53,523 bases of DNA from IMG/VR virus record IMGVR_UViG_3300029825_000389, positions 1 to 53,523 of that record; one strand, given 5' to 3'. Position numbers and translations under genes: made by a program. The notes under the pieces are model-generated. The model saw only the letters and a list, made by a program, of their open reading frames with translations, did not search any database and was not told the DNA's origin. This DNA is from a virus. Below are positions 100 to 53,523 of the stretch, piece after piece (position 1 is the first letter of the stretch; each line of letters starts with the position of its first letter).

Positions 100-234
100 A
101 AAGACTGGTCTAAAAGTTCAATAAGATTTATATTATTGAATTCTAAAAATGTAACTAATGAATTTATTGACAAAAGTATGTTTGAACGTACAGTTAAATT
201 ACTGAACGATAAAAAACGCCCTAAACTTGAATAA
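4..234 (+). CDS. 3' part of the wrap-around gene that starts at 53116: coiled-coil plus recombinase-type (large serine recombinase 'Recombinase' domain-like) DNA-binding protein with no catalytic domain
   Basis: The frame is continuous with 53116..53523 through the 99-nt overlap. The motif GKSLREIANELNSTGIKTNRNKDWSKSSIRFILLN resembles the DNA-binding domain of large serine recombinases. No N-terminal resolvase catalytic motif is present. Confidence 0.55.
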   Translation: MIEKIYKFYVEGKSLREIANELNSTGIKTNRNKDWSKSSIRFILLNSKNVTNEFIDKSMFERTVKLLNDKKRPKLE

Positions 235-493: not shown

Positions 494-667
494 ATGAGTG
501 ATTCAGTTGTTATTATAGCAATAGTTGCAATTGTAGCCATTGTAGGGATTATAGCATTGATTTCTTTTCATAAAGATATTTGTATTAATTTCAAAAATAA
601 GAGATCGACTAACATAAGTCAAAATGAAGTAGCTATTACAGTTGAAGATAAAAACTCAAAAAATTAA
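494..667 (+). CDS. 57-aa small membrane peptide (hydrophobic N-terminus, charged tail); type I toxin-like
   Basis: SD agagggggtga lies 6 nt before the ATG. Translation: MSDSVVIIAIVAIVAIVGIIALISFHKDICINFKNKRSTNISQNEVAITVEDKNSKN. A terminator follows directly. Confidence 0.5.
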   Translation: MSDSVVIIAIVAIVAIVGIIALISFHKDICINFKNKRSTNISQNEVAITVEDKNSKN

Positions 668-903: not shown

Positions 904-976
904 AAATGTACTTTTCCGACAAAGTACATTTTTAAACTAAAATATTTTCACATAAAACCGCAATGGCTTCTTTTAA
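856..976. repeat. Copy B of the duplicated segment; ends exactly where IS element 1 begins
   Basis: Same strings as copy A. Similarity stops after cttcttttaa (967-976). Confidence 0.8.
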
Positions 977-1047
977 CCTGTTCTTGTGTGGAATTCTCCC
1001 ATCCTCTATAGGTGGGAGATGAATAGCACTTGCCGTTAGGCAATATA

Positions 1048-1200
1048 TTACTTATTATACTTTTTCAATATTAATTCAATTGCTTCATCAAGTAACCTTG
1101 ACTGTGGTATTTTAGTTTCTCTTGAAAGTCCTTTAAACTTTTTCAACAATTCAATATCAATTGAATTTGTATAGCGTTCTCTGTTTTTTAAATCACTCAT
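1048..1200 (-). CDS. 50-aa ribbon-helix-helix (CopG/Arc-like) protein, divergent from tnpB
   Basis: ORF below the track cutoff. Translation: MSDLKNRERYTNSIDIELLKKFKGLSRETKIPQSRLLDEAIELILKKYNK. SD gaggtgata. Clear paralog of 24470..24628. Confidence 0.65.
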   Translation of the reverse strand: MSDLKNRERYTNSIDIELLKKFKGLSRETKIPQSRLLDEAIELILKKYNK

Positions 1201-1217
1201 AATATCACCTCAAAAAT

Positions 1218-1269
1218 AGTATATAATATATTTAAACTTATTGCAACTTACGTAAACTTATGATATAAT
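1218..1269. promoter_or_regulatory. Back-to-back promoters sharing one palindromic -35 (TTGCAA, 1241-1246)
   Basis: Plus strand: TTGCAA, 17 nt, TATAAT (1264-1269), driving tnpB. Minus strand: TTGCAA, 17 nt, TATACT (1218-1223), driving the RHH gene. AACTTA boxes at 1234-40, 1245-50 and 1254-60 are spaced about 10 bp apart. Confidence 0.6.
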
Positions 1270-1289
1270 AGTATTAAGAGGTGATAAAT

Positions 1290-2378
1290 ATGTTAAAAGC
1301 TTACAAATACAGGATATATCCAAACAAAGAACAAAGAATATTTCTAGCTAAAACCTTTGGGTGTACTAGATTTATCTATAATCAAATGTTAGCAGATAGA
1401 ATTAAATCTTATCAGGAGAACAAAGAATTGGATATAAAAAAAATAAAATATCCAACACCAGCACTATATAAACAAAAATTTCCTTGGCTAAAAGAAGTAG
1501 ATAGTTTAGCTTTAGCCAATGCACAAATGAATTTGGATAAATCCTATAAAAATTTCTTTAGGGATAAATCTGTAGGATTTCCTAAATTCAAAAGTAAGAA
1601 AACTAATTATAATAGCTATACAACCAATAATCAAAAAGGAACGGTATACATTGAAAACAGTCATGTAAAAGTACCTAAGTTAAAATCTATGATTAAAATA
1701 AAACAACATAGAGAGTTCACAGGCTTGATAAAATCCTGCACTATATCACAAGTACCAAGTGGCAAGTATTATATATCAATTTTAGTAGATAGTGAAAATT
1801 TCGTTCTACCAGTTATAAATAAAAAAATAGGTGTAGATGTTGGACTTAAAGAATTTGCAATATGTTCTGATGGGTATAGAGAACCTAATCCAAAACATCT
1901 TAGAAAATCAGAAAAAAGGCTCATTAAATTCCAAAGGGATTTATCGAGAAAGCAAAAAGGTAGTAACAATAGACGTAAAGCTAGGCTAAAAGTAGCAAAA
2001 CTACATGAAAAAATATCTAATCAAAGAGCAGATTTCTTACATAAGTTATCAATTAAACTAATCAGAGAAAACCAATCTATAGTTATTGAGGACTTAAGAG
2101 TAAATAATATGCTAAAGAATCATAAGTTAGCAAAAGCAATAAGCGAAGCTTCATGGTCAGAATTTAGAAGGATGTTAGAGTATAAGGCTAATTGGTATGG
2201 CAGGGAAATAATAATTGCACCATCTAATTATGCTAGTTCTCAATTATGTTCAGTTTGTGGGTATAAAAATAAAGAAGTAAAAAATCTAGCACTTAGAGAA
2301 TGGATTTGCCCTCAATGTGGTACACACCACGATAGGGATATAAATGCTAGTAAAAATCTACTGAAATTAGTTATATGA
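1290..2378 (+). CDS. tnpB: TnpB (OrfB) RNA-guided nuclease, IS200/IS605 family
   Basis: Canonical N-terminus [15 protein letters not shown]...FGCTRFIYN. RuvC-like D in GVDVGLK. C-terminal zinc ribbon CSVCG...CPQCG. The start is moved to ATG 1290 because GTG 1281 lies inside the SD. Confidence 0.9.
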
Positions 2379-2485
2379 TTTTGGTAATAAACTGAGGTTG
2401 GTTCGACCTTTAGAGCATGGGTAAACTTGCTACAGTAGTAGTATTGACCATGAAGCCATCCACTTCTATAAGTGGTGGTAGTTCA
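2379..2485 (+). ncRNA. Probable 3' part of the omega/right-end guide RNA scaffold of tnpB element 1
   Basis: A GC-richer structured tail lies immediately after the tnpB stop and ends in the right-end hairpin 2456-2478. Established biology of IS605 TnpB places the guide RNA here. The 5' end (probably inside tnpB) and the guide sequence are not determined. Confidence 0.4.
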
Positions 2486-2517
2486 CACATATAATGTATT
2501 GTATTGCATACAAAAAT

Positions 2518-2553
2518 AAAGCCTAGAATAGTGTAAAGGCTATTCTAGGCTTT
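2518..2553. terminator. Bidirectional terminator between tnpB element 1 and the end of the lysis operon
   Basis: aaagcctagaata pairs with tattctaggcttt, a 13-bp stem. Confidence 0.7.
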
Positions 2554-2581
2554 GAATTATTACTAAAATTATATTTTAATT

Positions 2582-3163
2582 CTATGCAGAAGCCGGTACA
2601 TTCTGTTCAGTATTTTGTACAGTAGCAATCTTTTGCTTCAACTGTGCATTTTCATTCTGTACAGCTGCTAGATCTTGTTGAGCTTTCTGTATTTGTGCGT
2701 CCTTTTCTGCTTCTGTAGTTGCCTTTTGTACAGGAGTTATAGTCTCTTTCTGTGATTTTATAGTGTCTACTATATCCGAAACATCTTTACTTGCATCAAA
2801 TGCAGGTGCTAAAATCTGACTACTCTTAACCTCTGAATTTACCTTTCCACAAATAGTTTCCCTGAAGTGGTTTAGTTCTTCCTGAGATATTCCTGGAATC
2901 TTCTCAATTAGCAGCTTATCAAATTCTTTTCTTTTCTGTTCCCCTGCCTGTGGTATAAATTTAAACTGCTGCTCTACTATATAGTAAATGTCTTGTGCAA
3001 TTTTATAATCCTCGTTGTATTTATCTACACCTAGTTGTGTTACAAGAGCTTCCCTTTTCTTTTTAAGATAAGTCACCCCTACTGTTACACCATAAGAAGC
3101 CAAAGCTCCTAAAACACTCAATACTCCACTTGAAATTATATTTGCTGCTTCATTTCCTAACAT
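2582..3163 (-). CDS. Holin-like membrane protein (LL-H holin family-like) with a coiled-coil tail
   Basis: N-terminal TM segment (ISSGVLSVLGALASYGVTVGV). It is the last gene of the lysis cassette, after the amidase. Confidence 0.4.
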   Translation of the reverse strand: MLGNEAANIISSGVLSVLGALASYGVTVGVTYLKKKREALVTQLGVDKYNEDYKIAQDIYYIVEQQFKFIPQAGEQKRKEFDKLLIEKIPGISQEELNHFRETICGKVNSEVKSSQILAPAFDASKDVSDIVDTIKSQKETITPVQKATTEAEKDAQIQKAQQDLAAVQNENAQLKQKIATVQNTEQNVPASA

Positions 3164-3273
3164 ACTTTTTCCTCCTAAAATTTAATTTGTATTTTTGATA
3201 ATTTAAAAAAGGCTATTTTACTAGTCTTATAAAACAAAATTCTCATCATATCTTTTGATTTATAAAATGAGAA

Positions 3274-4035
3274 TTAAAATAATACCTTAGATCCACCCTG
3301 ACCTTTGTTATTGTTATAAACTACCACCGGAGCTCCACCTTTACGAATAGTAATATAATTTCCTCTGTCCAGGTGAATTCCCATATCTCCATCAGCCCTT
3401 GGTTCTATATAAAATTTAGTACCTGGAATCTGAAATACTCCTTCTGGAATAGTTTCAGGATATGTAGGTACTGGTTGTACTACTGGCTTAGGTGCAGTTG
3501 GTTGGTTTGATACTGTTTGTCCTGTAATCCCTTTTACTATAGCTGTTGCTAGCTTCTCAGGATTATACTTGTTACAATCGCTTTTAGTATCACAGAAAAA
3601 TGGTTCTATAAGAATAGCAGTCATGTTTGTATATTTTAATACATAAAGTCCAGTTCTTAATTGGCTGCCTCTGTTTCTAAATTCTAATGCATTAGACATC
3701 TCATTGCATACTCTATCAGCATAAGTTTTACCTGAAGCACTTATATACTCTACTTCACAGCCATTGGCCTTATCTGTTTCATAGGCGTTAACATGCATAC
3801 AAATATGAAGTTGTGAGCCTATAGAATTAGCTTTATTAACCCTATAAGCAAGGCTCTGTCCTAAACTTAAGGCTGGGCTTGCTGGTGGCGTACAATCATA
3901 GCAGGTATGCCCTAGTTGCTGCAACTTTTTAATTGCAAGTGCTCCATATTCCCTGCAGTCATGTTCCTCATTTCTATAGCCGGAAGCTCCACGATCTTCA
4001 CCAGTACCATGTCCAAAATCATAAGTTATTACCAT
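3274..4035 (-). CDS. Endolysin, N-acetylmuramoyl-L-alanine amidase (Amidase_3-type) with a C-terminal binding domain
   Basis: DFGHG...GASG, HICMHVNA and CEVEY motifs. Lies in the lysis cassette. Confidence 0.8.
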   Translation of the reverse strand: MVITYDFGHGTGEDRGASGYRNEEHDCREYGALAIKKLQQLGHTCYDCTPPASPALSLGQSLAYRVNKANSIGSQLHICMHVNAYETDKANGCEVEYISASGKTYADRVCNEMSNALEFRNRGSQLRTGLYVLKYTNMTAILIEPFFCDTKSDCNKYNPEKLATAIVKGITGQTVSNQPTAPKPVVQPVPTYPETIPEGVFQIPGTKFYIEPRADGDMGIHLDRGNYITIRKGGAPVVVYNNNKGQGGSKVLF

Positions 4036-4057
4036 AACATCATTTCCTTTCTATTTC

Positions 4058-4312
4058 TTATCTTTTTAATAAAACTCCTATAACAAAAATAGAGACTGTG
4101 ACAAATATGCCAAGTCCCCATTGCATAGCTGATATAAAATCATCCATTTTTTTTATTAAATTTCTTATGTCAGTTTTATTTTCTCTGTTATCTTGCTTAA
4201 TTGAGCTTATTTCTTCATCATGTTTTTTTAACCAAATTTCATGCTCATCTACCGTATCATTTAATGTTTTGTGTTTTTCTTCACATAATTCAGCATCATA
4301 ATTTTCACTCAT
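4058..4312 (-). CDS. xhlA: XhlA-family haemolysin/holin-associated protein
   Basis: CEEKHKTLNDTVDEHE...coiled coil followed by a C-terminal TM segment. Lies directly upstream of the amidase, as in PBSX. Confidence 0.6.
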   Translation of the reverse strand: MSENYDAELCEEKHKTLNDTVDEHEIWLKKHDEEISSIKQDNRENKTDIRNLIKKMDDFISAMQWGLGIFVTVSIFVIGVLLKR

Positions 4313-4525
4313 ATACTACCTCCTGTTAATTTTTTGTATTAAAAAAGAGCCTTGGATTCTTCCAAAGTTCTTAATACCTTAGTTCGCAAAAATATTCTAA
4401 CATTCTTCTTATCCACTTGTAACCATTGGTATCACTTAGTTTACACTAATACAGATTAATAGTTACTTATGTGACACAATTTTAAGAATGAAAAAAGAGC
4501 CCTATTTGAGCTCTTTGTAAACAAC

Positions 4526-5194
4526 TTATAACATTTCCAAATATTCATATGGCATTATTGGGAAGGTTATATCTTCATTCTTATACTTCTCATTAAAAAT
4601 AATTTTAATATCCTTATTTAATTGTGGAATATATTCACCTGGAACTATAATACATACTATATCGTTTTGTTTAGGAATATCTATATAATAATTACTTCCT
4701 ATAGTTTTTAGTAGTTGCTCATCAATAAACTGAGGTAATATTCTCCATTCATTTTCAGTAAAATACTCTAAATCTTTGCAAAAAAGTTCTAAATTAAATA
4801 AAAACATTTCATCTTTATCACGATATTCTTTATTTCTATCTAAAAATTTATCTTTGATATGTGGAAAATAGTTTTCTATAGCTTTACATAGTCCTGAATT
4901 TTTATCAATATAAATAACTGGCTGAGCGTGATAGAAATGAGCCCACTCCTTCGTCATACCTATACCAAACTTGCCATACTTTTCTGTATGATACTTAATT
5001 TCATGTAATCTAATATCAGTCATACATAAAACTGGCACTTTGGTCTTTAATGATGCTAACTCATCTGGTAACCCTTTTCTTTCTTCTAAACACTCAGTTA
5101 ATCTAAAACCATCTCTTAAAATTTTTAATACTGTATCATAATCTTTAGTAAAATGATACAGAAAATCTTTTTCAGTATTCAAAATATACTTCAC
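4526..5194 (-). CDS. AbiGi-like abortive-infection family protein (moron between the fibre and lysis genes)
   Basis: The N-terminal pattern ...FLYHFTKDYDTVLKILRDGFRLTEC... matches my memory of the AbiGi family. GTG start with SD gaaagaagg. Non-coding DNA lies on both sides. Confidence 0.45.
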   Translation of the reverse strand: MKYILNTEKDFLYHFTKDYDTVLKILRDGFRLTECLEERKGLPDELASLKTKVPVLCMTDIRLHEIKYHTEKYGKFGIGMTKEWAHFYHAQPVIYIDKNSGLCKAIENYFPHIKDKFLDRNKEYRDKDEMFLFNLELFCKDLEYFTENEWRILPQFIDEQLLKTIGSNYYIDIPKQNDIVCIIVPGEYIPQLNKDIKIIFNEKYKNEDITFPIMPYEYLEML

Positions 5195-5393
5195 CTTCTT
5201 TCATCCATATTTTTTAAACTCTGCCAGTACATCTGGTGGAAGTGTAATGTTTATACGTACCGCCTTCTCTCCCAATATAACCACCCCCTTTAGAAATGAT
5301 TATATATCTTTTAATTTTGTCTGTCATTTTTATACATATTAATACACACTTATATATATTTATAAGTATAAATATATACGCAAAAATATTCTA

Positions 5394-5540
5394 TTATGAA
5401 GCAATTGCTGTTAATATTTCTGCCTTTTCAGCATCAGTAAGCTTAGTATATCTTGTAATAATCTCTGTTGCTGTTTTATTCTCCTCTATAATTAATACCT
5501 TTATTGCATTAACGAATATACTTTTCTTCCAAGTTGGCAT
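5394..5540 (-). CDS. 48-aa XkdX-position small protein
   Basis: Start overlaps the upstream stop (TAATG). MPTWKKSIFVNAIKVLIIEENKTATEIITRYTKLTDAEKAEILTAIAS. Called mainly from position after the fibre genes. Confidence 0.4.
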   Translation of the reverse strand: MPTWKKSIFVNAIKVLIIEENKTATEIITRYTKLTDAEKAEILTAIAS

Positions 5541-5809
5541 TAGCTAACACCTCCTACTAAATTAGCCATAGCTACATTTAATGCATCCACTTGGCTTTTT
5601 ATAGATGTAAACTCATCAATCGGAGCTGTTGAAACTAGTTCGAATTTATCTGTCGACCATACGCCGTTTTCAAATTTTCTATAGCTATAAGTATTGTTTT
5701 GGTACTCCTGTTCTGTTATTTCAACAGTGTTCAATGGTTGTTCTAGTACCGAACTTTGTGTTCCGATACATATTTTATTTTCATTCAATGTTGCATAATA
5801 TTTTAACAT
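5540..5809 (-). CDS. Tail-fibre-associated protein (XkdW position)
   Basis: Compact operon position; A-rich coding strand. Confidence 0.5.
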   Translation of the reverse strand: MLKYYATLNENKICIGTQSSVLEQPLNTVEITEQEYQNNTYSYRKFENGVWSTDKFELVSTAPIDEFTSIKSQVDALNVAMANLVGGVS

Positions 5810-5821
5810 AAAATAGACCTC

Positions 5822-6490
5822 CTAATTAAATTCTATTACTTGCCAATGATGTGTAGACAAACCATTATAATCGTATTTAATGATTTTCAGTGTTGTACTA
5901 TTTATTAAAATAACACTCTTCATAGGTACATAAACAGGAGAACTGTTTGTTGAACTATATGAAGAAAAAACCATTGATTTTGAAACATTAACACTAGATA
6001 TTGATATGTTTTGGTCTACATCATCCATACTTGTAGTAACAGTTGTTCCTTTTTGTAATGTTTTAACATTATTGAATTCAATAACTTCCCAATAGATAAC
6101 CCTATAAGCATATCCAGTACTATTACCAATATATAATTTTATTTCAGTCGGAGATGTGATTTCTGCTCTAACTAAATCGTTTTGGTCTGTTGACCTTGAG
6201 CAAAAATGAACCATAACAACCGATTTTGTCAAATCAACACTAGATATACTAATTGACAATCCACTTGAAGTTATAGAGTCACTTGCAACCGAACCTCTTT
6301 GAATACTTTTTATATTACTTCCATACAAACTACTATTAACTTTACTTACCAAATCAGCCATACTATCTGTATCACTAGCACTTACACCTTTTGCAACTAA
6401 AGCACTCTTTAAATCTGCCTTTTGATTTATACCTTCTAAGCTTTGAAGTTCTGTTATTATATCATTTAATTTTGCTGTACTATCTAACAT
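5822..6490 (-). CDS. Tail fibre / receptor-binding accessory protein
   Basis: S/T/N-rich beta-type sequence downstream of the main fibre gene. Confidence 0.5.
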   Translation of the reverse strand: MLDSTAKLNDIITELQSLEGINQKADLKSALVAKGVSASDTDSMADLVSKVNSSLYGSNIKSIQRGSVASDSITSSGLSISISSVDLTKSVVMVHFCSRSTDQNDLVRAEITSPTEIKLYIGNSTGYAYRVIYWEVIEFNNVKTLQKGTTVTTSMDDVDQNISISSVNVSKSMVFSSYSSTNSSPVYVPMKSVILINSTTLKIIKYDYNGLSTHHWQVIEFN

Positions 6491-6502
6491 GCTATTTTCC
6501 TC

Positions 6503-7591
6503 CTATTCTATAGCTATATAATTATAATTTATAGCTGAGATTCCTACAGGTAAAACAACACTTGTTAAGTCTGCCTTTGCAGGTGATTGAAGTTTATATG
6601 AATTTCCAACAATATAATTTGGAGAACCAGAATCATAAATAACTATTATTTTCCCATTATTTGAATTTGAAATAGTAAGGTTATTAGCATCGTTTTTAAA
6701 TACTATAGTAGATTGATTGCCTACCGCTATTAATATACTAGGAATAAAAGTTAATCCTGTTATTGTTATTGTACCAGTTGGATTGGTAGTACCGTCTGAT
6801 CTAGTAAAGCTTTGAGTTGTAGTAACTGATGTAACTGTTCCTATTTTGTATTTTTTATTAGTATTGTTCATGTTATTAATTATGTTTTGTATATCAATCC
6901 ATGAACTAGAACTTGTTAAACTACTTCCTGTACCTGTATTTAATCCTGTAGCAATATTAGTTTTAATAGTAGATTGATTTGCTTCTGCATTATTTGTTAT
7001 GTCTATTAATTGTTGTTTTTGTGTAGCTGATATTCCCCTATTGCGCAAGGTAAAAAAAGTCGCATCAGCTACCACCTCCACAAACCCTTTTTCTAATACT
7101 GTAACTGCATTACCGTCAACGTCTTGTAAAGGCTTTGATGTTGTTCCTCCATCTGTAGATATTGTTATTGCTCCACCTGTTAAATCTGAACTAAGTTGAA
7201 AAAATAATCTATTCGTATTTGAAAGTCTATTTATTCTTATTTGAGTACCACTAATAACAGGTATTTGATACATATAATCTGCCTTATGCGAATCAAAATC
7301 TTCCTTTACATCTTCTAAAGTTGTCCCATTTGATGTCTTTATATCACTTGCAGAAAGAGTAATTGTCCCTGTCTTACTATTTACACTTTGAACTGGAGCC
7401 CCACTAGAAGTTATAAAATTACTATCATTGGTTAAATTACTCGTTTTAGTGGGTACTTCTGTTTTCAAGGCTCTTTTATTTATTTCTGCATCTAGTATTG
7501 TATTATCATCAACTAAATCCTGTCTTTTTAAATATTCATTTCCCTGCCATTGATTAAGTCCAATATTAGGAGTTTTATTTACACTTGGCAT
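6503..7591 (-). CDS. Tail fibre protein
   Basis: N-terminus MPSVNKTPNIGLNQWQGNEY... typical of Firmicutes prophage fibres. S/T/N-rich. Start reset to ATG 7591, preceded by SD aggagtgg. Confidence 0.65.
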   Translation of the reverse strand: MPSVNKTPNIGLNQWQGNEYLKRQDLVDDNTILDAEINKRALKTEVPTKTSNLTNDSNFITSSGAPVQSVNSKTGTITLSASDIKTSNGTTLEDVKEDFDSHKADYMYQIPVISGTQIRINRLSNTNRLFFQLSSDLTGGAITISTDGGTTSKPLQDVDGNAVTVLEKGFVEVVADATFFTLRNRGISATQKQQLIDITNNAEANQSTIKTNIATGLNTGTGSSLTSSSSWIDIQNIINNMNNTNKKYKIGTVTSVTTTQSFTRSDGTTNPTGTITITGLTFIPSILIAVGNQSTIVFKNDANNLTISNSNNGKIIVIYDSGSPNYIVGNSYKLQSPAKADLTSVVLPVGISAINYNYIAIE

Positions 7592-7602
7592 TTTAACCAC
7601 TC

Positions 7603-8151
7603 CTATCTTTTATAAGTTTCAAGTTGGTTCCAAGTTAAATTTAATGCTTCTAACTGATCCCAAGTTAAATTATAGCTTTCAAATTGATCCCAAGTTAAAT
7701 AAGTAAAAATATAATCCAATAATAGATATGCAGGCTTTATTTGTTCTACAGCATTTTGCAAGTCACTTATATTTGGCGGGACACCATAAATATTTGTAAA
7801 TTTAACATGGGTGGTACCATCAAAAGTAACTTGTACATCTCCATTACTAAATGAATCACATACAAGTTTAATCATGGTTGCACTAAATTTTCCGCTTCCC
7901 CTTGATTTTGATTTAATTACACTCCTTCTATAATCTAAATCTTTTGTATAATCTATCGTTATCCCTAAATCTTTTTCATAATAATTCAATCCCCATGTGG
8001 CGGTGTCAATATTTAACTGTAATTTAATATCGTCAAGATTGGCATATGAATTATTAAATTCACTTCCTTCTGCATTTAACAATTCATCAAAAGTTTTTGT
8101 CTCTGTAAGCATTGGCGGCAAATATGACTTTAAAGTATCTTTATATGTCAT
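7603..8151 (-). CDS. Baseplate protein, XkdU/YmfQ (DUF2313-like)
   Basis: YLPPML...F..LL motif. Lies after baseplate J. The C-terminus carries three LTW(D/N)Q repeats. Confidence 0.6.
   Translation of the reverse strand: MTYKDTLKSYLPPMLTETKTFDELLNAEGSEFNNSYANLDDIKLQLNIDTATWGLNYYEKDLGITIDYTKDLDYRRSVIKSKSRGSGKFSATMIKLVCDSFSNGDVQVTFDGTTHVKFTNIYGVPPNISDLQNAVEQIKPAYLLLDYIFTYLTWDQFESYNLTWDQLEALNLTWNQLETYKR
7610..7702. repeat. Three tandem 30-bp repeats encoding LTWDQFESYN / LTWDQLEALN / LTWNQLETYK
   Basis: ccaagttaaat recurs at 30-bp spacing. The repeats are visible in the protein C-terminus. Confidence 0.8.
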
Positions 8152-8172
8152 TTATACCCACCCCTTTTTTAA

Positions 8173-9276
8173 TTATGATATAGTAACCGTATCCAGTATT
8201 GGAATCTCACATAAGGTTGACGTTAAAGATATTGGTATATTTGCAGTTCCACTATTTATAGCTAAATTAGAGTAATCAAGTACCCCGGCACTGGCAAGGA
8301 TTGCGGCACCAACCTTGGCATAAGATACAACTGCATTATCTACAAAAGCTATAGATTTTAAGTAAGCAGTTATACTAGCTTTAACATTTGTATCTCTTTG
8401 TTCATCTGTATAATTAGTATCTTTAATTACTGTAAAACTTACACTTATATTTTTACCTTTAGCACCTTCTATAGTTGTAAAAGCTCCATAAGGTGCGGCG
8501 CCATATCCCTGTCCCCAAATGCCATCACCTAATGGGTCCATATACGTTTGTACTTCATTTACTAAATCTGTGCTGGGAACTTCTTTATTAGAATCTATAA
8601 TTACAAGTTTAACAGTGTTATTGCCATTCCATGTAGGGAAAACCTTGCAATCTCCTACTCCTGTATAATCTTTTGCCAAGCTTTTAAAGTGGGCTATATT
8701 ACCTCCCGTATCTGCTTCCTGAAGTTTTTCATAGTATCTCACAAGTAAAGCTGCATCTGTTTCTTCATCAAATCCATTTTCCGTTGCTGCCAAATTAGTA
8801 ACACTTGTTACCCCAGGTATGGTAACTGGCATTACTGTTATTTGTCCTGCTGGTATATTACCACTACTTCCAGCCACTACTGCCTTAACATTAATTGTCC
8901 CACTTGTAGTTATTGTTTTAGGTTCGGTAGATTTAAATTGTACCCCACTGACTGTTTGAATTAAATCTCCTACTGCTATAGTTGGGTTTCCTGCGATGGT
9001 TAAAACGCCTACAGCATATGTAGCTGGCGTCCTGGTTAAACCAGTTCTTTGATACACCGCGCTTGTTAGTTCATCACCTGTTAGGTTACTAATATCAAAC
9101 TTACTTTTCACTTCATCTAGTGAAGATGATATTTTTGAAAACTCTTTACTTGTTGCGGCTATATTGTCATATACAAAATAACCTTCTGTTTTATCTACAC
9201 TGTCTGATATATTGTTTAACATCCTAGTTCTTATAGTTTCTTCACTTTCGCTATACGTCACTGTATTCCACCCCAC
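8173..9276 (-). CDS. Baseplate J-like protein (XkdT)
   Basis: Size, position and general sequence style of baseplate J proteins. Confidence 0.7.
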   Translation of the reverse strand: MGWNTVTYSESEETIRTRMLNNISDSVDKTEGYFVYDNIAATSKEFSKISSSLDEVKSKFDISNLTGDELTSAVYQRTGLTRTPATYAVGVLTIAGNPTIAVGDLIQTVSGVQFKSTEPKTITTSGTINVKAVVAGSSGNIPAGQITVMPVTIPGVTSVTNLAATENGFDEETDAALLVRYYEKLQEADTGGNIAHFKSLAKDYTGVGDCKVFPTWNGNNTVKLVIIDSNKEVPSTDLVNEVQTYMDPLGDGIWGQGYGAAPYGAFTTIEGAKGKNISVSFTVIKDTNYTDEQRDTNVKASITAYLKSIAFVDNAVVSYAKVGAAILASAGVLDYSNLAINSGTANIPISLTSTLCEIPILDTVTIS

Positions 9277-9685
9277 CCTGATCCGTAATTGCAGTAAAAC
9301 TAACTATCAACTTATCATCTTCACTATTTGAAATAAAGTTTTCTATTCCTGTAATATGAGGATTCACGCTTAAACACTTTTCAACTAATCTTTTTGCTTC
9401 ACTAGCAATTAATGCACTTGATAGCCCTTGACCAACTATACTGTCTAAATCGTGGCCATAATTGTCCGAGTAAATACTATAAGTTAGCCTTGTAGTGTGA
9501 AGTGCTTTCCATATCCAAATTTTTAAAGCTTCTTTTCCTGTAACAATTTGAAATTTACCATCCTTTAATAAAAAATCATTATTCTCAAAATCCCATGCAT
9601 ATTCTTTTGGAATAGTTGAGGTTGCCGATACACTCTGGTCTATTACCGTATCCAAATTTAAAACATAATCAGGAAAAATATTCAT
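9251..9685 (-). CDS. Baseplate protein, XkdS-like (DUF2634-like)
   Basis: Position; motif ...GKEALKIWIWKALHTTRLTYSIYSDNYG. Confidence 0.55.
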   Translation of the reverse strand: MNIFPDYVLNLDTVIDQSVSATSTIPKEYAWDFENNDFLLKDGKFQIVTGKEALKIWIWKALHTTRLTYSIYSDNYGHDLDSIVGQGLSSALIASEAKRLVEKCLSVNPHITGIENFISNSEDDKLIVSFTAITDQGGVEYSDV

Positions 9686-9696
9686 AATTTCACCCC

Positions 9697-10125
9697 TTAG
9701 GACGCAAACTTTTTATATTCTCGTAAACTTAACGTGTATTCTATGTCTCTGCACATTGCAATTTCCTTATGCGTAAAATTTTCTATACTGCAAAGCATAT
9801 TTATAGGTGTATCTGTGATAACCAAACGAATTACAGCTGACCAAAACCTCCAACTATCAATTAATTCTACATAATCATAAGGGTTATCTTTCGGAGTACA
9901 TTCGCAAAAATTATATTTTTGAGCAGGAAATAAGCTACTAATATCAATAGTAGCTAACTTTCTTTTCCCTATAAAACTAATTTCTCCTAAATTTTCAGTA
10001 TTGAAGGTTTCACTAATTGTACCCTTTGTCATTTCTATTGTCCCTGGATTCACTGGGAGTTGAAATATTTGTCTATCATCTAAAGGCATACCGTCTTCTC
10101 TATTATCCATCAACCAAAATTCCAT
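9697..10125 (-). CDS. Putative baseplate/tail protein
   Basis: Operon position only. Confidence 0.45.
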   Translation of the reverse strand: MEFWLMDNREDGMPLDDRQIFQLPVNPGTIEMTKGTISETFNTENLGEISFIGKRKLATIDISSLFPAQKYNFCECTPKDNPYDYVELIDSWRFWSAVIRLVITDTPINMLCSIENFTHKEIAMCRDIEYTLSLREYKKFAS

Positions 10126-10143
10126 ATAAGTCCACTCCTTTAT

Positions 10144-10458
10144 TTATGTTAATTTGTCAAAGACAAAAAGCTTTTGATTGTCTTCTGAAGATATAGCGGC
10201 AACTTTATCCCTTTGTTTCAATCCCTCATGCGTAATAGTTCCACTAACTGTTCCATCTGGTGATGTTAGTGTAAATGGTATTTGATATTCTGTTGCATTT
10301 TTACATACATACAAAGTGTCACCAGTAAAAAGTGCTTTTCCTCCATAAATACTTACAGTTAGAGGATTTATACTTTCTACAATTCCAACTACAGTTCCAA
10401 TATAATCTTTATTATCTCTAAGTTTAAATTCTTTAGCTAATTCTGTATATTGGCTCAT
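10144..10458 (-). CDS. Small baseplate protein (XkdR position)
   Basis: Start reset to ATG 10458 behind SD ggggggtga; operon position. Confidence 0.5.
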   Translation of the reverse strand: MSQYTELAKEFKLRDNKDYIGTVVGIVESINPLTVSIYGGKALFTGDTLYVCKNATEYQIPFTLTSPDGTVSGTITHEGLKQRDKVAAISSEDNQKLFVFDKLT

Positions 10459-10472
10459 AATTTCACCCCCCA

Positions 10473-11864: not shown

Positions 11865-11876
11865 ATAATCACCTTT

Positions 11877-23047: not shown

Positions 23048-23218
23048 TCCGTTACGTAAAACTTATAAAACTCTATAAAAACTTTATAAAAGTTAATGTT
23101 CACTTCCTCATTCAATGTGTCCGATTTTACCTAAGCTACTTTCGTTTGCTATAACACTCCAAAGGCATAAATTCGGATGTAAACTCACCCTACATATTAG
23201 TAGTATCTTTTAAAATGA

Positions 23219-24376
23219 TTAAACTACTAATTTATATCTTGATAAATTGATACTTGCTTGAAAATCTCTATCCATAACATTTCCACATTCACATTTATAT
23301 ACTCTATCTGAAAGTTTTAAATCTTTCTTAATAGCTCCACAACATGAACATAGTTTTGATGATGGAAACCACCTATCTGCTTCTACAAATTCAATTCCAT
23401 ATCTTTCAGATTTATATTTAATCATAGTTTTGAATTTATCTAATCCTTGTTGTGCTATTGCTTTAGATAAATGTCGATTTTTCATCATGCCTTTAACGTT
23501 TAGACATTCCATGACTATCCTTGACGGCTTGTTTCTCACTATCTTAGTAGACTCTTCATGTCTATAATTGGTACGAATGTTTGCAAGTTTTATATGCAAT
23601 TTAACAATTTCTTTTTCAAGTTTTATAATATTGCTTGTTTTTACGTAACTTTCTCCTTTCTTATTTTTAATATATTTTCTTGATACTCTGCGTTGCAATC
23701 TACGCATTTTCTTTTCTAATTTCTTAACTCTATGCGTTTTGTTAATATTTTTAGATACAATACCATTGCTACATATTGCTAAATCTTTTACCCCAACGTC
23801 TATTCCAATACTCTCTGTAGTTAATTCAGGCTTAATATCCTCAATCTCAACCCCAACAGATATATACCAATTCATACCGTCAAAACTAACCCTTGGATTG
23901 ATATATTTGACATCTGTAGGTATTCTATTTTTTTCAGAAAGTTTAACCCAATTAAGTTTTTGCTTATTCTTCTTTTTGCTACTTGCAAAACCTTCAAACT
24001 TAACATGAGTTGCAGTAAATTGAATTTTATCAGTATCTTGATAAAATTTAGGTGGTGAATGTTTTTTACTTTTAAATTTTGGTCTTTTAGCTAAACCTTT
24101 AAAAAATCTTTTATAAGCTTCACAAGCATCTTTTATGGCTTGTTTAGACACGTTGTTACTAATATTGTTTAGCCATTTATATTGTTGTTGTTTCTTTAAT
24201 TGAGTAAGTTCTTTTCTTAAATCACCATCATTAATAAACTTCCCACCATTTTTATAATTTTCCTCTTGTTTTGCAAGTGTCCAGTTATAAATAAATCTAG
24301 CTGTACCTGCATATTGAAATAATTTAGTTTTTTGTTTATTGTTAGGCTCTAATCTAACTTTAATCCCCTGTATCAT
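23219..24376 (-). CDS. tnpB: TnpB (OrfB) RNA-guided nuclease, second and divergent copy
   Basis: KVRLEPNNKQKTKLFQYAGTARFIYNW..., GIDVGVK, and the C-terminal CSCCG...CECG zinc ribbon. Confidence 0.9.
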   Translation of the reverse strand: MIQGIKVRLEPNNKQKTKLFQYAGTARFIYNWTLAKQEENYKNGGKFINDGDLRKELTQLKKQQQYKWLNNISNNVSKQAIKDACEAYKRFFKGLAKRPKFKSKKHSPPKFYQDTDKIQFTATHVKFEGFASSKKKNKQKLNWVKLSEKNRIPTDVKYINPRVSFDGMNWYISVGVEIEDIKPELTTESIGIDVGVKDLAICSNGIVSKNINKTHRVKKLEKKMRRLQRRVSRKYIKNKKGESYVKTSNIIKLEKEIVKLHIKLANIRTNYRHEESTKIVRNKPSRIVMECLNVKGMMKNRHLSKAIAQQGLDKFKTMIKYKSERYGIEFVEADRWFPSSKLCSCCGAIKKDLKLSDRVYKCECGNVMDRDFQASINLSRYKLVV

Positions 24377-24400
24377 ATTTACACCTCCCTTTCTAAATTT

Positions 24401-24452
24401 ATTATATCACAATGTCCAAGGACTTGCAAGGACTATTCTAATATAATATACT
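24401..24452. promoter_or_regulatory. Back-to-back promoters sharing a palindromic -35 TTGCAA (24424-24429)
   Basis: Minus strand: TTGCAA, 17 nt, TATAAT (plus 24401-06), driving tnpB. Plus strand: TTGCAA, 17 nt, TATACT (24447-52), driving the RHH gene. Direct repeats AAGGACT at 24418-24 and 24428-34. Confidence 0.6.
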
Positions 24453-24469
24453 ATTTTTGAGGTGATAAC

Positions 24470-24628
24470 ATGGCTAACAAAGATTTAAAAAATAGAACTC
24501 CTTTTTCAAATGCAGTTAATACCGAATTACTCAATAAACTAAAAGTTTATTCTAAAGAAACTGGAATACCAATTTCAAAACTATTAGATAAAGCAATAGA
24601 GTTATTTCTGAAGTCTACTAGAAAATAG
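24470..24628 (+). CDS. 52-aa ribbon-helix-helix protein, paralog of 1048..1200
   Basis: MANKDLKNRTPFSNAVNTELLNKLKVYSKETGIPISKLLDKAIELFLKSTRK. The upstream string atatactatttttgaggtgata is shared with element 1. Confidence 0.65.
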   Translation: MANKDLKNRTPFSNAVNTELLNKLKVYSKETGIPISKLLDKAIELFLKSTRK

Positions 24629-24697
24629 TAGGCTTTTATAATTTCTTATAAGTTTTCTTTAACTGTTACCAGCCTTCCTAAATTAATTAGTCCACTT

Positions 24698-49723: not shown

Positions 49724-50308
49724 ATGGATAGGAAACAATTTGATAGTTTAAGCATAGATAAACAAATAGAATATATTAATGAAGAACTTAAAAACAGTTC
49801 TTCATTAACTAAAATATGCACTGAAATAGGAATAGATAGAAGTACTATAAGAAAAAGAGCTAAAAAAGTAGGACAAGAATATGACGGTTGTACCAATCAA
49901 TATATAAGTGACAATAGTAAGACATCTGTAACATATGATGAAAGTAAGGCAAATACAATAAATGATATTTGTCAGACAATAGTCCCAAAAGATATCATTA
50001 AAGAAGAGACACTTGTCACAAACAAAGAAGTATTAAAAAATTTATTAAATTTATCTGATAAGTATGATAAGATTATGGAAGTAGTTTCATGGTTTGAGAG
50101 TGACGTAAACAAGACAAATGTCATAGAAGTTAGAGAAGGGATTAAGATAGATTTACCAGAAGAAATAGATCTAGGATTTAGAAAAACAATTAGAATAAAT
50201 AGTGTCGTCTGGCATAAGTTCGCAGAGTTTTGTAAAAAACATAAAGAGTTTAAAGAAAAAGACCTGATTAGTCAGGCCTTACTGGAATACATAAAAAAAT
50301 ATAGTTAA
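49724..50308 (+). CDS. DNA-binding protein with an N-terminal HTH and a C-terminal RHH-like segment
   Basis: SLTKICTEIGIDRSTIRKRAKKVG and IRINSVVWHKFAEFCKKHKEFKEKDLISQALLEYI. Start reset to ATG 49724 behind SD aaggagga. Confidence 0.55.
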   Translation: MDRKQFDSLSIDKQIEYINEELKNSSSLTKICTEIGIDRSTIRKRAKKVGQEYDGCTNQYISDNSKTSVTYDESKANTINDICQTIVPKDIIKEETLVTNKEVLKNLLNLSDKYDKIMEVVSWFESDVNKTNVIEVREGIKIDLPEEIDLGFRKTIRINSVVWHKFAEFCKKHKEFKEKDLISQALLEYIKKYS

Positions 50309-51225
50309 AAATAATTTTTTACCACCACATCAAGCCTGCTGTGGCCAAGGTTCTCGGATGTTATTCTGAGAGCCTTTTTATTATACCTTCGACCTGATCC
50401 ATCTCTGCATATATAGTCAAGGTTTTTTTCTTCTAATCCTTGAAGGGCTTCAATATATTTATGCTGTGCATAATATCTTCTGCAACTATGAACATCCATG
50501 GCATGATGTATTTTTTTAAATACAGTAGCTTGTCCTGCCTTCTCTGCCTTTTCCTTGGCTTTAAGAATAATATTATATGTGCCATGTAAAGGATGTATGA
50601 ACCTCCCGCGGCCGTTCTTAGTCATAACGCGGTATTCCTTCTTAGATTTAAAATCTAAGATCACATTTCCTTTTATATCTTTTTTTATCTGTTCTGGTTT
50701 AATTTGAGCTGTTTCACTTCTTCTCAATCCTGTAGCGTCGCAAAAATCCATTAAATCTTTATTATTTTCCTTAGAAAAATGCTTGTCATATGATACTTCA
50801 TTTCGACTTCTTTTAATTTTAGGTCTATCATTCCTTTTACTGGGCAATTTTATTCCAAAGTCATAAGTATGACAGTACATTATTTTAGCTAATGAAGCTG
50901 CTTTAAGACGTATAGTGTATCCACTTTCTCCTTTGTCTATGCTCTCTTTTAGCCATTCTCCTATATGTTCATTGGGTATATTAGTAAGTATTTTAAATTC
51001 TTTTTCAGGGTGTTTTTTTCTTTCCCATGTAGCAAAATTTAAAGCGTGTTTTTTATAGTTATCACATGTACTTTTACTATAAATGCCTGGAGCTCTTAGA
51101 GAATTTTCTTTTATTCCTAATAATAAATCCATTTCCTTTTGCTCCTTTTGAGCCTGTTTTTTTGATTGGCCAAAATTTTTTAATGAATCTATCCTTTTAA
51201 GAATTTGAAATTTTAAACTAGCCAT
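50305..51225 (-). CDS. Tyrosine recombinase / integrase-family protein
   Basis: GLRRSE (Arg), HSCRRYY (HxxR) and LGHSRLDVVVKNY (His...Tyr). Confidence 0.6.
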   Translation of the reverse strand: MASLKFQILKRIDSLKNFGQSKKQAQKEQKEMDLLLGIKENSLRAPGIYSKSTCDNYKKHALNFATWERKKHPEKEFKILTNIPNEHIGEWLKESIDKGESGYTIRLKAASLAKIMYCHTYDFGIKLPSKRNDRPKIKRSRNEVSYDKHFSKENNKDLMDFCDATGLRRSETAQIKPEQIKKDIKGNVILDFKSKKEYRVMTKNGRGRFIHPLHGTYNIILKAKEKAEKAGQATVFKKIHHAMDVHSCRRYYAQHKYIEALQGLEEKNLDYICRDGSGRRYNKKALRITSENLGHSRLDVVVKNYF

Positions 51226-51650: not shown

Positions 51651-52652
51651 TTATTGATTTAACTTTTTGAATTCAGATTTTACGTCTTCATTATTTACAT
51701 CAACATAGATCATCGTTGTGTCAAGATTTGAATGGCCGAGAATTTTTTGGATAGATGTAATTTTCATACCTTGTGCTAGAGCCATAGTCGCGGAGCTATG
51801 TCTTAATTTATGAGGAAACACAGGTATATTAATACCTGCTGCCTTTGCTATTTTAGATATTTCTTTTTCAACAGATCTGTTACTAAGTCGTTTGAATGGA
51901 TATTTTGAAGAAATAAAAAGAGCATTGTTTATAATACCCTTTTTCTCTCTTTCTTTTAAATATTTCTTTATATATAATTTTGATTTTGGATTTAAATAAA
52001 CAGTCCGTTCCTTAGAACCTTTCCCTATAACATTTAGCTCAGATTTATCAAATTTAATATCTTCAATATTTACATTTACCATTTCACTTAATCTGCACGC
52101 TGTACTAAATAGAAACTCCAAGATGCAACGTTGGCGTGTCGTCTTACATGCATCTCGTAATAGCTCTAATTGATCTTGCGTAAGAGATTTTCTAAGATGT
52201 TTGTCTACTTTAATATTTTTAATCTTTTTCATGGGATTTTTAACTATCATTTCTTCATTTTTTAACCATCCAAAAAATGATTTTAATATACTTATTTTAT
52301 TGCTTAACGTAGTTTTTTTAACTCCAGTATTTGTTACAGCCGCAAGGTACATTCTTATATCTACAGTTGTTATAGAATTTATTGGTCCATGGCAAAAACT
52401 TGCAAATTTTAATAATTGTAATTTGTAATTATTAATTGTCAGAGGACTTGCGCCATCTAACTCTTTTACAGCTAGAAAATATTGAATTTTTTCTTCAATA
52501 TCTGAAGCTACAAGAGATTTTTCGACTGGATGAATTTCGTAGTTGACTAAAACTTCATCTATCAAATTCCTGATCTTGATTTGATCTAATTCTGGTAATT
52601 CTAAAGATAATTTCCCTACCAATTTGATTGTTACTTCCTCATTACTGTTCAT
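51651..52652 (-). CDS. XerC/XerD-like tyrosine recombinase
   Basis: N-terminal SAM-like domain. ACRLSE, HKLRHSSAT and LGHSNLDTTMIY catalytic motifs. Confidence 0.85.
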   Translation of the reverse strand: MNSNEEVTIKLVGKLSLELPELDQIKIRNLIDEVLVNYEIHPVEKSLVASDIEEKIQYFLAVKELDGASPLTINNYKLQLLKFASFCHGPINSITTVDIRMYLAAVTNTGVKKTTLSNKISILKSFFGWLKNEEMIVKNPMKKIKNIKVDKHLRKSLTQDQLELLRDACKTTRQRCILEFLFSTACRLSEMVNVNIEDIKFDKSELNVIGKGSKERTVYLNPKSKLYIKKYLKEREKKGIINNALFISSKYPFKRLSNRSVEKEISKIAKAAGINIPVFPHKLRHSSATMALAQGMKITSIQKILGHSNLDTTMIYVDVNNEDVKSEFKKLNQ

Positions 52653-52713: not shown

Positions 52714-53115
52714 CCCTGTAGGCATTTTTAATTTTTTTATTTTGTTAGTCTACTAAAACCAATATTTTGTTTGTTACTTTATTTTTAAAGCAAAATATTT
52801 TATTTACTCATTTCTATTGTGTAATCTTTTTGCATAAAAATTTTATTTATAAAAAATATTTTTTATATTTTTTATAAATGTTAGCCCAAAAGCCAAAACA
52901 AAATGTTATCTAAATAGACATTAACTAAATTCTTTTTCATACATATATTATGTGATGTTTTTATTATTTTGAGTTCACATTGACACATGGGAAAAAATTT
53001 AAAATGTTTATATCTCTTTTTTTGGTTTAGTAATTAATTATTGAACTATATCAAAATGTAAGATATACTTAAAATAATGCGGTTTATGAATTAATTGATA
53101 AACGGAGGTAATAAC

Positions 53116-53523
53116 ATGCCAAGGGTAACAATAAAGTCGCTTGAACAGAAAATAGAAGATTTAAAATTTATTAGTGAATATCAAAGTAACGAAATAAATA
53201 AACTTAATACTGAGATAGATACTTTAAAAGATAGTAAAAATGTAGTTTCTGTAGAAGAATATAATTTTCTACTTAAGCAGCTGGAAGTGCAAAAGCAAAG
53301 TACTGCTGAATATAAAAAGTTATATGAAGATCTAAAAGAGAAATATAGTAAGAAATGCTATATAGATAGTTCAGAAATAAAACTGAACGCAAGAAATGCA
53401 GGTAGGAAGATGTATTCTAACAAAGAAGTGATTGAAAAAATATATAAGTTCTATGTAGAAGGTAAGAGCCTGCGAGAAATTGCAAATGAACTAAATAGTA
53501 CAGGAATTAAAACTAATCGCAAT
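53116..53523 (+). CDS. 5' part of the wrap-around recombinase-domain gene (continues at 100..234; about 180 aa in total)
   Basis: SD acggaggt followed by ATG 53116. Coiled-coil N-terminus. In frame with 4..234 through the overlap. Confidence 0.55.
   Translation, partial: MPRVTIKSLEQKIEDLKFISEYQSNEINKLNTEIDTLKDSKNVVSVEEYNFLLKQLEVQKQSTAEYKKLYEDLKEKYSKKCYIDSSEIKLNARNAGRKMYSNKEVIEKIYKFYVEGKSLREIANELNSTGIKTNRN
53425..53523. repeat. Terminal overlap copy 2 (identical to 1-99)
   Basis: Exact 99-nt identity. Confidence 0.9.

Follow-up and report, generated by a model that had tools for sequence, protein, structure and literature searches.

A phage-borne IS605-family tnpB element without a transposase gene, and its divergent ribbon-helix-helix gene as a predicted self-limiting repressor

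Cas12 descends from TnpB nucleases, which also serve as compact genome editors, and any natural restraint of their expression is of practical as well as evolutionary interest. One such restraint has been described in two preprints. Zedaveinyte et al. 2023 (bioRxiv 10.1101/2023.11.20.567912) reported an Arc-like ribbon-helix-helix (RHH) open reading frame (ORF) in IStrons and insertion sequence (IS) elements, with hundreds of Arc homologues adjoining TnpB, homing endonucleases, other mobile elements and toxin-antitoxin systems. Moon, Zedaveinyte, Wiegand & Sternberg (bioRxiv 10.64898/2026.09.24.754181, 28 Sep 2026) then located IS605-family Arc on the intergenic promoter by chromatin immunoprecipitation sequencing (ChIP-seq), arc+tnpB-only elements included. 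In that work, Arc motifs overlap the -35 and -10 of the divergent promoters, Arc represses a red fluorescent protein reporter driven by the tnpB promoter, and mutations in the beta-strand or in the operator relieve this repression. Here, we analyse a locus of this type in IMG/VR virus record IMGVR_UViG_3300029825_000389, the whole 53,523-nt stretch being referred to below as the window. Positions 978–2486 are a complete non-autonomous IS200/IS605-family element of the ISDra2/IS608-like lineage, without a transposase gene, in which a small RHH gene diverges from tnpB. An earlier note on this DNA had suggested that the RHH protein is a built-in transcriptional governor of the nuclease, a partner for which it knew of no described role. 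Such a role is in fact described in both preprints; the governor idea is an independent rediscovery of the Arc system, and its added value is incremental.

The order of the element is simple. After a TTTAAC target come a left end (LE) with a bulged hairpin, the minus-strand gene of the 50-aa RHH protein, back-to-back promoters, tnpB on the plus strand, an omega RNA and the hairpin of the right end (RE); the distance from the LE boundary to the RHH stop codon is only 70 nt. Copies about 78% identical to this element were retrieved from at least five unrelated phage or plasmid contexts, and by blastn they have in common with the window only the interval 971/972–2487. These copies begin with CTGYTCTTGTG (window 978), and those reaching the right end stop at GGTAGTTCAC (window 2486), the last bases of the element being GTTCAC. 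Among nine distinct insertion contexts, TTAAC lies directly 5' of the element in all nine and TTTAAC in eight; TTTAAC is also found at the autonomous relative L111, described below. In these nine contexts the 3' flanks are unrelated to each other and the target is not duplicated. A TTAAC 5' flank, sharp ends and unrelated 3' flanks are together the signature of IS200/IS605 transposition, and the RHH gene is therefore inside the element, which answers the question raised by the earlier note of whether the IS boundaries might leave it out. The limits which that note had given (977–2485) were one base off, although the element itself stands.

An RHH protein 90% identical to that of the window (P0003) occurs in dozens of metagenomic contigs. 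Among ten P0003 places, six hold a divergent RHH–tnpB pair, two (L010 and L011) run off the contig within tnpB, one (L004) is a disrupted copy with a nested tnpA–tnpB element, and one (L009) has the left end, RHH gene and promoter fused to another gene. The intact copies occupy at least four unrelated neighbourhoods, namely one of plasmid type (with a serine recombinase and ParM), two different modules of phage replication and a further phage region, and L004 adds a fifth, beside a phage lysis and tail region. The contigs carrying this genome originate from fermentation and other metagenomes.

The intergenic region is the part of the locus most directly relevant to regulation. As the earlier note had described, it contains back-to-back promoters on a single palindromic TTGCAA, with TATAAT and TATACT each at a 17-nt spacer, and this arrangement turns out to be conserved across the RHH family. 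A promoter-like match is not significant in itself in such an AT-rich window (13 sites versus 10.6 expected); the promoter call is supported by conservation and not by the single-locus match. Indeed, 24 of 46 related loci have both -10 hexamers at 16–18 nt from a single TTGCAA-like hexamer, versus 0.19 in shuffles (maximum 2). The intergenic regions thus have a common scaffold, in which a TTGCAA-like hexamer is followed after 17 nt by TGnTATAAT toward the nuclease gene, with TATAMT 17 nt away toward the RHH gene.

Three AACTTA boxes cover this hexamer, at 1235–1240, 1245–1250 and 1255–1260, and nowhere else in the 53.5-kb window does such a phased triple occur, versus 0.04 expected by chance. 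The boxes and their phasing of about 10 bp were already reported in the earlier note, but their reading as strictly direct repeats had to be replaced. Relatives flip the third site to AAGTT, and AA(C/G)TT is self-complementary except for its centre base, so that the boxes are better read as three quasi-palindromic half-sites. In relatives, the three half-sites are again about 10 bp apart, and the last two mostly make up an inverted repeat; the third site, AAACTT in the window, is AAGTT in these relatives, giving the palindrome AACTTACGTAAGTT. Moreover, the half-site sequence changes in step with the beta-strand of the RHH protein. The strand RERYTNS goes with AACTT or AAGTT, RKTISNA and related strands with AACTAC..GTAGTT, RERIGSA with AGTGG..CACT, RTPIGSA with AACTGA..TCAGTT, RVPLGSA with AAGTCA..TGACTT, and RTPFSNA, the strand of a second RHH protein of the window, with AGTCC, AGTCC and GGACA at identical positions. 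It is because of this parallel change that the half-sites are read as a predicted operator, the chief computational evidence being their covariation with the beta-strand while the promoter frame stays fixed.

The RHH protein itself is a bare domain, Pfam RHH_3 covering residues 6–49, which agrees with the earlier description of the ORF as a 50-aa RHH protein divergent to tnpB. All 32 homologues found are RHH_3, and no relative with a solved structure was detected by sequence, even at E up to 10. In IMG/VR, 73 of 78 RHH relatives have a divergent ORF within 450 bp. These 73 partners comprise 15 TnpB, about 26 HNH-type proteins (in three sequence clusters), three LAGLIDADG, one GIY-YIG, nine small Cro/CI-type helix-turn-helix (HTH) proteins and a few others, so that mobile nucleases make up about 45 of the 73. 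In phage contigs, genes for RHH proteins 68–78% identical to that of the window lie divergently beside HNH endonuclease genes, often as the sole gene on their strand, and a phage-like plasmid of C. botulinum carries an annotated RHH–TnpB pair of identical layout between tail genes. At L039/L040 (2642–3650), an RHH protein 70% identical to that of the window is paired with a LAGLIDADG protein of 254 aa. In bacterial chromosome contexts (L012–L016), another 70%-identical RHH protein (P0025) faces a small HNH_3-like gene and a second RHH gene; these loci lie inside apparent defence islands, with ThsB-TIR, AbiH and the S subunit of a type I restriction-modification system nearby, which suggests that the range of the cassette extends to defence or mobile islands of cells.

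How the RHH gene came to stand in this element is best seen in the closest autonomous relative, L111 (Clostridium algifaecis), whose TnpB is 88% identical. There, TTTAAC is followed by a left end 92% identical to 995–1043, a Y1 tnpA, and tnpB with RE from the equivalent of 1278. In phage c-st, tnpB and the right end are 81% identical and the LE hairpin is homologous; instead of an RHH gene, what lies between them is left over from a Y1 tnpA co-directional with tnpB. In both cases homology to the window is confined to 995–1043 and 1278–2486, the right junction of the intervening cassette being the tnpB ribosome-binding site. Relative to L111, the alignment thus reads as a replacement of tnpA by the cassette. 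Close TnpB relatives were scanned in cellular genomes, one genome per species, and 57 loci had upstream DNA: 35 have a co-directional Y1 tnpA only, 18 neither gene, three a divergent RHH gene followed by tnpA–tnpB, and one (L151) an RHH gene only, which brings the loci with Y1 tnpA to 38 of 57. In the three loci with both genes (L127, L138 and L157), the RHH gene is beside an intact tnpA and not in its place; at the left end of these elements it thus has a separate slot. Thereby, the claim that the RHH gene occupies the tnpA slot is correct against L111 and c-st and fails for these three elements. At L009, the equivalent of window 972–1284 is joined to a different 254-aa gene; the module driving another gene there, the RHH–promoter unit is a swappable cassette. 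This 254-aa partner (L009, 1574–2664) has no significant Pfam match, and the left-end hairpin of L009 is now a perfect palindrome.

The TnpB protein aligns to the solved ISDra2 TnpB structures 8bf8, 8exa and 8h1j with an E value of 4e-90, and its best structural match is an ISDra2-like designed nuclease of equal length and register. In the alignment to this best match, the GVDVG, IEDL and HDRD motifs, which we take to hold the catalytic D-E-D triad of ISDra2 TnpB, are kept, together with the zinc-ribbon cysteines (CxxC...CxxC). The protein is accordingly predicted, on its motifs, to be an RNA-guided nuclease. From the tnpB stop to the right end, the alignment of 21 homologues displays compensatory changes in 14 of 24 predicted pairs, and the homologue copies that reach the right end all terminate in GTAGTTCAC, where homology ends. 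This conserved structure is consistent with a functional omega RNA, whose 5' limit is probably inside tnpB; no Rfam family matches the omega RNA of the 978–2486 element. The adjacent flank would act as the guide, as the guide position in IS200/IS605 TnpB systems suggests, and from the biology of the same family TTTAAC is the presumed transposon-associated motif of TnpB.

The coordinates of all these features, and of a second pair in the same genome, are collected in table 1.

Table 1. Features of the element at 978–2486 and of the second RHH–tnpB pair (window coordinates; a full stop stands for features given without strand).
Feature	Position	Strand	Basis or remark
Target TTTAAC	972..977	+	outside the element; 5' of the left end in 8/9 distinct insertion contexts
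Left end (LE)	978..1043	+	start of homology between independent copies; hairpins 995-1019 and 1030-1043
RHH cassette (gene, bidirectional promoter, operator), 234 bp	1044..1277	.	interval of Y1 tnpA in the closest autonomous relative
arc-like RHH gene, predicted repressor	1048..1200	-	50 aa; Pfam RHH_3 PF12651, E 1e-17
-10 TATACT, leftward RHH promoter	1218..1223	-	17 nt from TTGCAA; position conserved in relatives
Predicted operator, three AACTT half-sites	1235-1239, 1245-1249, 1255-1259 (1235..1260)	.	10-bp phasing; overlap -35 and both spacers
Palindromic TTGCAA, shared -35 of divergent promoters	1241..1246	.	sequence and conservation
Extended -10 TGaTATAAT, tnpB promoter	1261..1269	+	TATAAT 1264-1269, 17-nt spacer; 10/12 matches, TG present; conserved
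tnpB	1290..2378	+	362 aa from ATG at 1290; Pfam HTH_OrfB_IS605, OrfB_IS605, Cas12f1-like_TNB
omega RNA scaffold 3' part and right end (RE)	2394..2486	+	RE hairpin 2456-2478; covariation in 21 homologues
Predicted guide portion	2487..2506	+	flank directly beyond the RE on its 3' side; sequence varies between all insertion contexts
RAGATH-18 Rfam match	23165..23104	-	69 bits, just 3' of second tnpB
Second tnpB	24376..23219	-	385 aa, 32% identical to first TnpB
Second RHH	24470..24628	+	52 aa, 57% identical to first RHH

The ends of the element and its lack of a transposase are in line with a non-autonomous member of the family. The hairpins at 995–1019 and 2456–2478, noticed earlier as related and on the same strand, both form on the plus strand, each with CTAT as loop and, in the 5' arm, a single bulged T (DNA-fold z of -3.5 and -2.6, respectively). 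Both are kept in relatives, and they correspond to the same-strand imperfect hairpins, without terminal inverted repeats, that characterize IS200/IS605 elements. The Y1 HUH TnpA of that family is missing from this element. The window is AT-rich and resembles the genome of a clostridial-type phage, and its ends are identical (1–99 and 53425–53523), indicating a circular assembly; a Y1 transposase and a large serine recombinase used as tblastn queries against the circularized window gave no match, as the earlier note had stated for Y1 and serine tnpA, and the sole ‘Recombinase’ ORF of the window fails to match the catalytic half of that recombinase query. An IStron was also considered and ruled out, no group I intron being found in 900–2650, where neither Intron_gpI nor any other Rfam family matched even at E up to 1.

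From this ensemble, we consider it likely, with good confidence, that the RHH protein is a self-limiting repressor of the divergent RHH and tnpB promoters of the element, the binding and the repression being what we infer from sequence. RHH dimers would bind the three AACTT half-sites, one helical turn apart, over the shared -35 and both spacers. This occupancy would repress both genes, leading to negative autoregulation of the RHH gene and to a tnpB expression held low, and upon entry into a cell devoid of RHH protein, both promoters might fire briefly and then shut down. Guided by its omega RNA, TnpB would cleave empty sites that are flanked by TTTAAC and correspond to the right flank, which would favour retention of the element and its homing, for example between co-infecting phages. 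Movement to new sites would rely on a Y1 TnpA provided in trans by autonomous relatives in the clostridial host, whose end hairpins are near-identical (e.g. L111). The governor proposed in the earlier note is thereby supported by the boundaries, the conserved promoter and the covariation of the boxes, as well as by the published Arc experiments.

Several observations nonetheless weigh against this repressor reading. First, no empty-site allele was recovered: an exact search of viral contigs for the window site (GGCTTCTTTTAAC joined to ACATATAATG) and for the L005 site found none, nor did an exact search of metagenome contigs for the empty L005 site. All nine contigs with the neighbouring 193-aa gene also carry the element. 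The comparison with empty alleles of related phages that the earlier note had in mind is thus unavailable from these junction searches, and the boundaries rest on comparing independent insertions. Second, only four of the 57 close cellular TnpB relatives have an RHH gene, which makes the partnership optional; as to the co-occurrence which the earlier note wished to see measured, 15 of the 73 viral RHH partners are TnpB. Third, some Arc homologues lack specific binding according to Moon et al. (bioRxiv 10.64898/2026.09.24.754181), and the contact residues reported there (N5, N7, T9) for the tested Arc homologues, from P. xylanilyticum and C. botulinum, do not match the beta-strand of the window RHH protein, so that its membership in the Arc clade seeded by WP_003367503.1 and WP_094548610.1 is putative; the same Pfam family and the same spectrum of partners (TnpB and homing endonucleases) argue for it.

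Three other explanations were weighed, and all of them rank well below the repressor reading. The RHH gene could be a hitch-hiking phage regulator, that is, cargo controlling phage or host genes in the manner of P22 Arc or Mnt, its proximity to tnpB being incidental. Relatives are indeed annotated as ‘Arc-like repressor’ in temperate clostridial and Bacillus phages, and the small Cro/CI-type HTH genes faced by nine of the 73 viral relatives would fit such a role. However, the phased operator pattern occurs in the 53.5-kb genome only at the RHH gene's own promoter, the RHH gene and tnpB move as one unit into unrelated contexts, and the share of mobile nucleases among the partners (about 45 of 73) is hardly that of an incidental neighbour. 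We regard this explanation as improbable.

Less probable still, and in our opinion very unlikely, is a toxin-antitoxin-like pair in which the RHH protein would neutralize TnpB by protein–protein contact, the nuclease serving as an addiction toxin. A toxin-antitoxin role was proposed by Altae-Tran et al. 2023 (PMC10691335) for an archaeal clade of RHH/MazE-TnpB, and the window RHH protein has a weak Pfam Antitox_RHH match, below the cut-off (E 0.04). Yet the archaeal clade has a rearranged RuvC site, whereas the motifs of the window TnpB are canonical; the 50-aa RHH protein has no toxin-binding tail; and RHH and tnpB are divergent, not co-transcribed as in a type II operon. Highly similar RHH proteins with an equal promoter layout are moreover paired with HNH, LAGLIDADG and GIY-YIG nucleases, and the common feature is therefore the DNA site and not the protein partner. 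As for a transposition cofactor, in which the RHH protein would bind the element ends or the omega RNA region and help or block excision or integration by a TnpA in trans, the 29 nt between the RHH gene and the left-end hairpin and the listing of transposon-end or TnpB binding among the starting hypotheses of Moon et al. (bioRxiv 10.64898/2026.09.24.754181) are outweighed by a half-site array that is not repeated at LE or RE, by the same cassette serving homing endonuclease genes without transposon ends, and by the ChIP-seq peaks reported in that preprint on the promoter, so that we find it equally implausible.

Some further features of the element and its surroundings are worth recording. A small GC hairpin, TTGCCGTTAGGCAA, lies at 1030–1043 between the LE hairpin and the RHH stop codon and is conserved in relatives with variable loops (GCCGGTAGGC, GCCGACAGGC); it may act as a terminator, either of the RHH gene or of transcription entering from outside, from which it would shield the element. 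Upstream of the insertion is a segmental direct repeat (610–740 and 846–976, with a 236-bp period and 83–87% identity). It takes in a TTTTCACATAAAACCG..GGCTTCTTTTAA motif as well as the terminator and the 3' end of the 57-aa membrane ORF at 494..667. Of its two copies, the second stops exactly at the TTTAAC target of the element, and the first has TTTAAA there, unoccupied. In the disrupted copy L004 (1648–4229), LE, RHH gene and promoter are followed by a different N-terminal coding stretch broken by a nested complete IS605-type element (Y1 tnpA, a 381-aa tnpB and its own left-end hairpin), and then by the last 320 nt of the original tnpB and RE; the same phage population thus does contain a Y1 transposase.

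Around the circular junction of the window, a protein of about 185 aa is encoded (about 52970..53523 joined to 100..234), the domain content of which is only ‘Recombinase’ PF07508. A resolvase catalytic domain was not found in this protein, which is probably the remnant of a large serine integrase, and two tyrosine recombinase genes lie near it (50305..51225 and 51651..52652, both on the minus strand). In the phage collection, no near-identical phage was found for window 2500–12000, and the match was limited to the tnpB and RE of phage c-st, at 81% identity.

A second, different RHH–tnpB pair is located at 23100–24700 (23.2–24.6 kb), between the major capsid gene and the head-completion genes. 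Its layout is that of the first, with TTGCAA, 17 nt, TGaTATAAT, and TATACT on the opposite side, the half-sites being AGTCC, AGTCC and GGACA. RNAs derived from RAGATH-18 are guides of IS607-type TnpBs (Cell Res 2024, PMC11061315), and by analogy the RAGATH-18 match next to the second tnpB would make this pair IS607-type; no serine TnpA for it was found in the window.

Considering the two pairs together with the partner spectrum, a broader proposal can be put forward, which we hold to be about evenly balanced between true and false: an RHH module of about 230 bp would be exchangeable in front of at least four kinds of nuclease (TnpB, HNH, LAGLIDADG and GIY-YIG), its beta-strand and half-sites would have co-diversified into specificities that do not cross-react, and in the present element tnpA would have been swapped for it between the LE hairpin region and the tnpB ribosome-binding site. 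If this is true, one 53-kb phage keeps two separately governed TnpB elements, one IS605-type (AACTT) and one IS607-type (RAGATH-18, AGTCC), and a self-limited TnpB element with its transposase in trans would act in phages like a regulated homing endonuclease gene. The presence of the same cassette as guard of classical homing endonuclease genes supports such a homing-endonuclease-like role of phage TnpB. In any case, the locus is a clean natural example of the architecture associated with Arc control (a minimal arc and tnpB, with sharp ends and several independent insertions), and the comparative data provide testable operator predictions for several RHH specificity classes. Four of these points were not found stated in the accessible text of the Arc papers: the cassette standing cleanly in place of tnpA, one palindromic -35 common to both promoters across the family, a table of beta-strand and half-site classes, and two differently specified RHH–TnpB elements in one phage genome.

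The element can finally be placed among known systems. ISDra2 and IS608 likewise have bulged same-strand sub-terminal hairpins, a TnpB (highly similar in the case of ISDra2) with an omega RNA at the right end, and insertion 3' of a fixed short target without duplication. They differ in having tnpA in cis and TTGAT or TTAC as targets, whereas the window element has TTTAAC and an extra repressor cassette. With the tnpB-only IS1341-type group, it has in common the non-autonomous state and the lack of tnpA. CvkR is likewise a transposon-encoded regulator that represses the gene of an RNA-guided effector of its element; it is however a MerR-type winged-helix protein, not an RHH one, and belongs to another type of element.

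With the classical repressors P22 Arc and Mnt, CopG, omega of pSM19035 and MetJ, the window protein has in common the RHH fold and, as a prediction, the mode of action, i.e. dimers using a beta-ribbon on repeats spaced by a helical turn, with autoregulation. It is distinguished from them by its Pfam family, RHH_3, and by three half-sites placed inside a divergent promoter that shares one hexamer. The archaeal RHH/MazE-TnpB pairs (Altae-Tran et al. 2023, PMC10691335) also encode a small RHH protein beside tnpB; in these, the RHH gene is upstream and co-oriented, the TnpB site is rearranged and the pair is immobile, whereas in the window the genes are divergent, the motifs canonical and the unit mobile.

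The closest correspondence is with the Arc-bearing IS605 elements, for which the two preprints describe a small RHH gene inside the IS boundaries, a bidirectional intergenic promoter, repeated motifs over the promoter elements and arc+tnpB-only architectures, together with members of the RHH family beside homing endonucleases, all of which are paralleled here, the motifs in the form of predicted half-sites. In the common layout of these elements, tnpA and arc are on one strand and tnpB on the other, whereas arc stands alone against tnpB in the window and against tnpA–tnpB in its relatives. The tested Arc of P. xylanilyticum, as described there, has a beta-strand and half-sites that differ from those of the window RHH protein, the present copy being carried by the genome of an uncultured phage.

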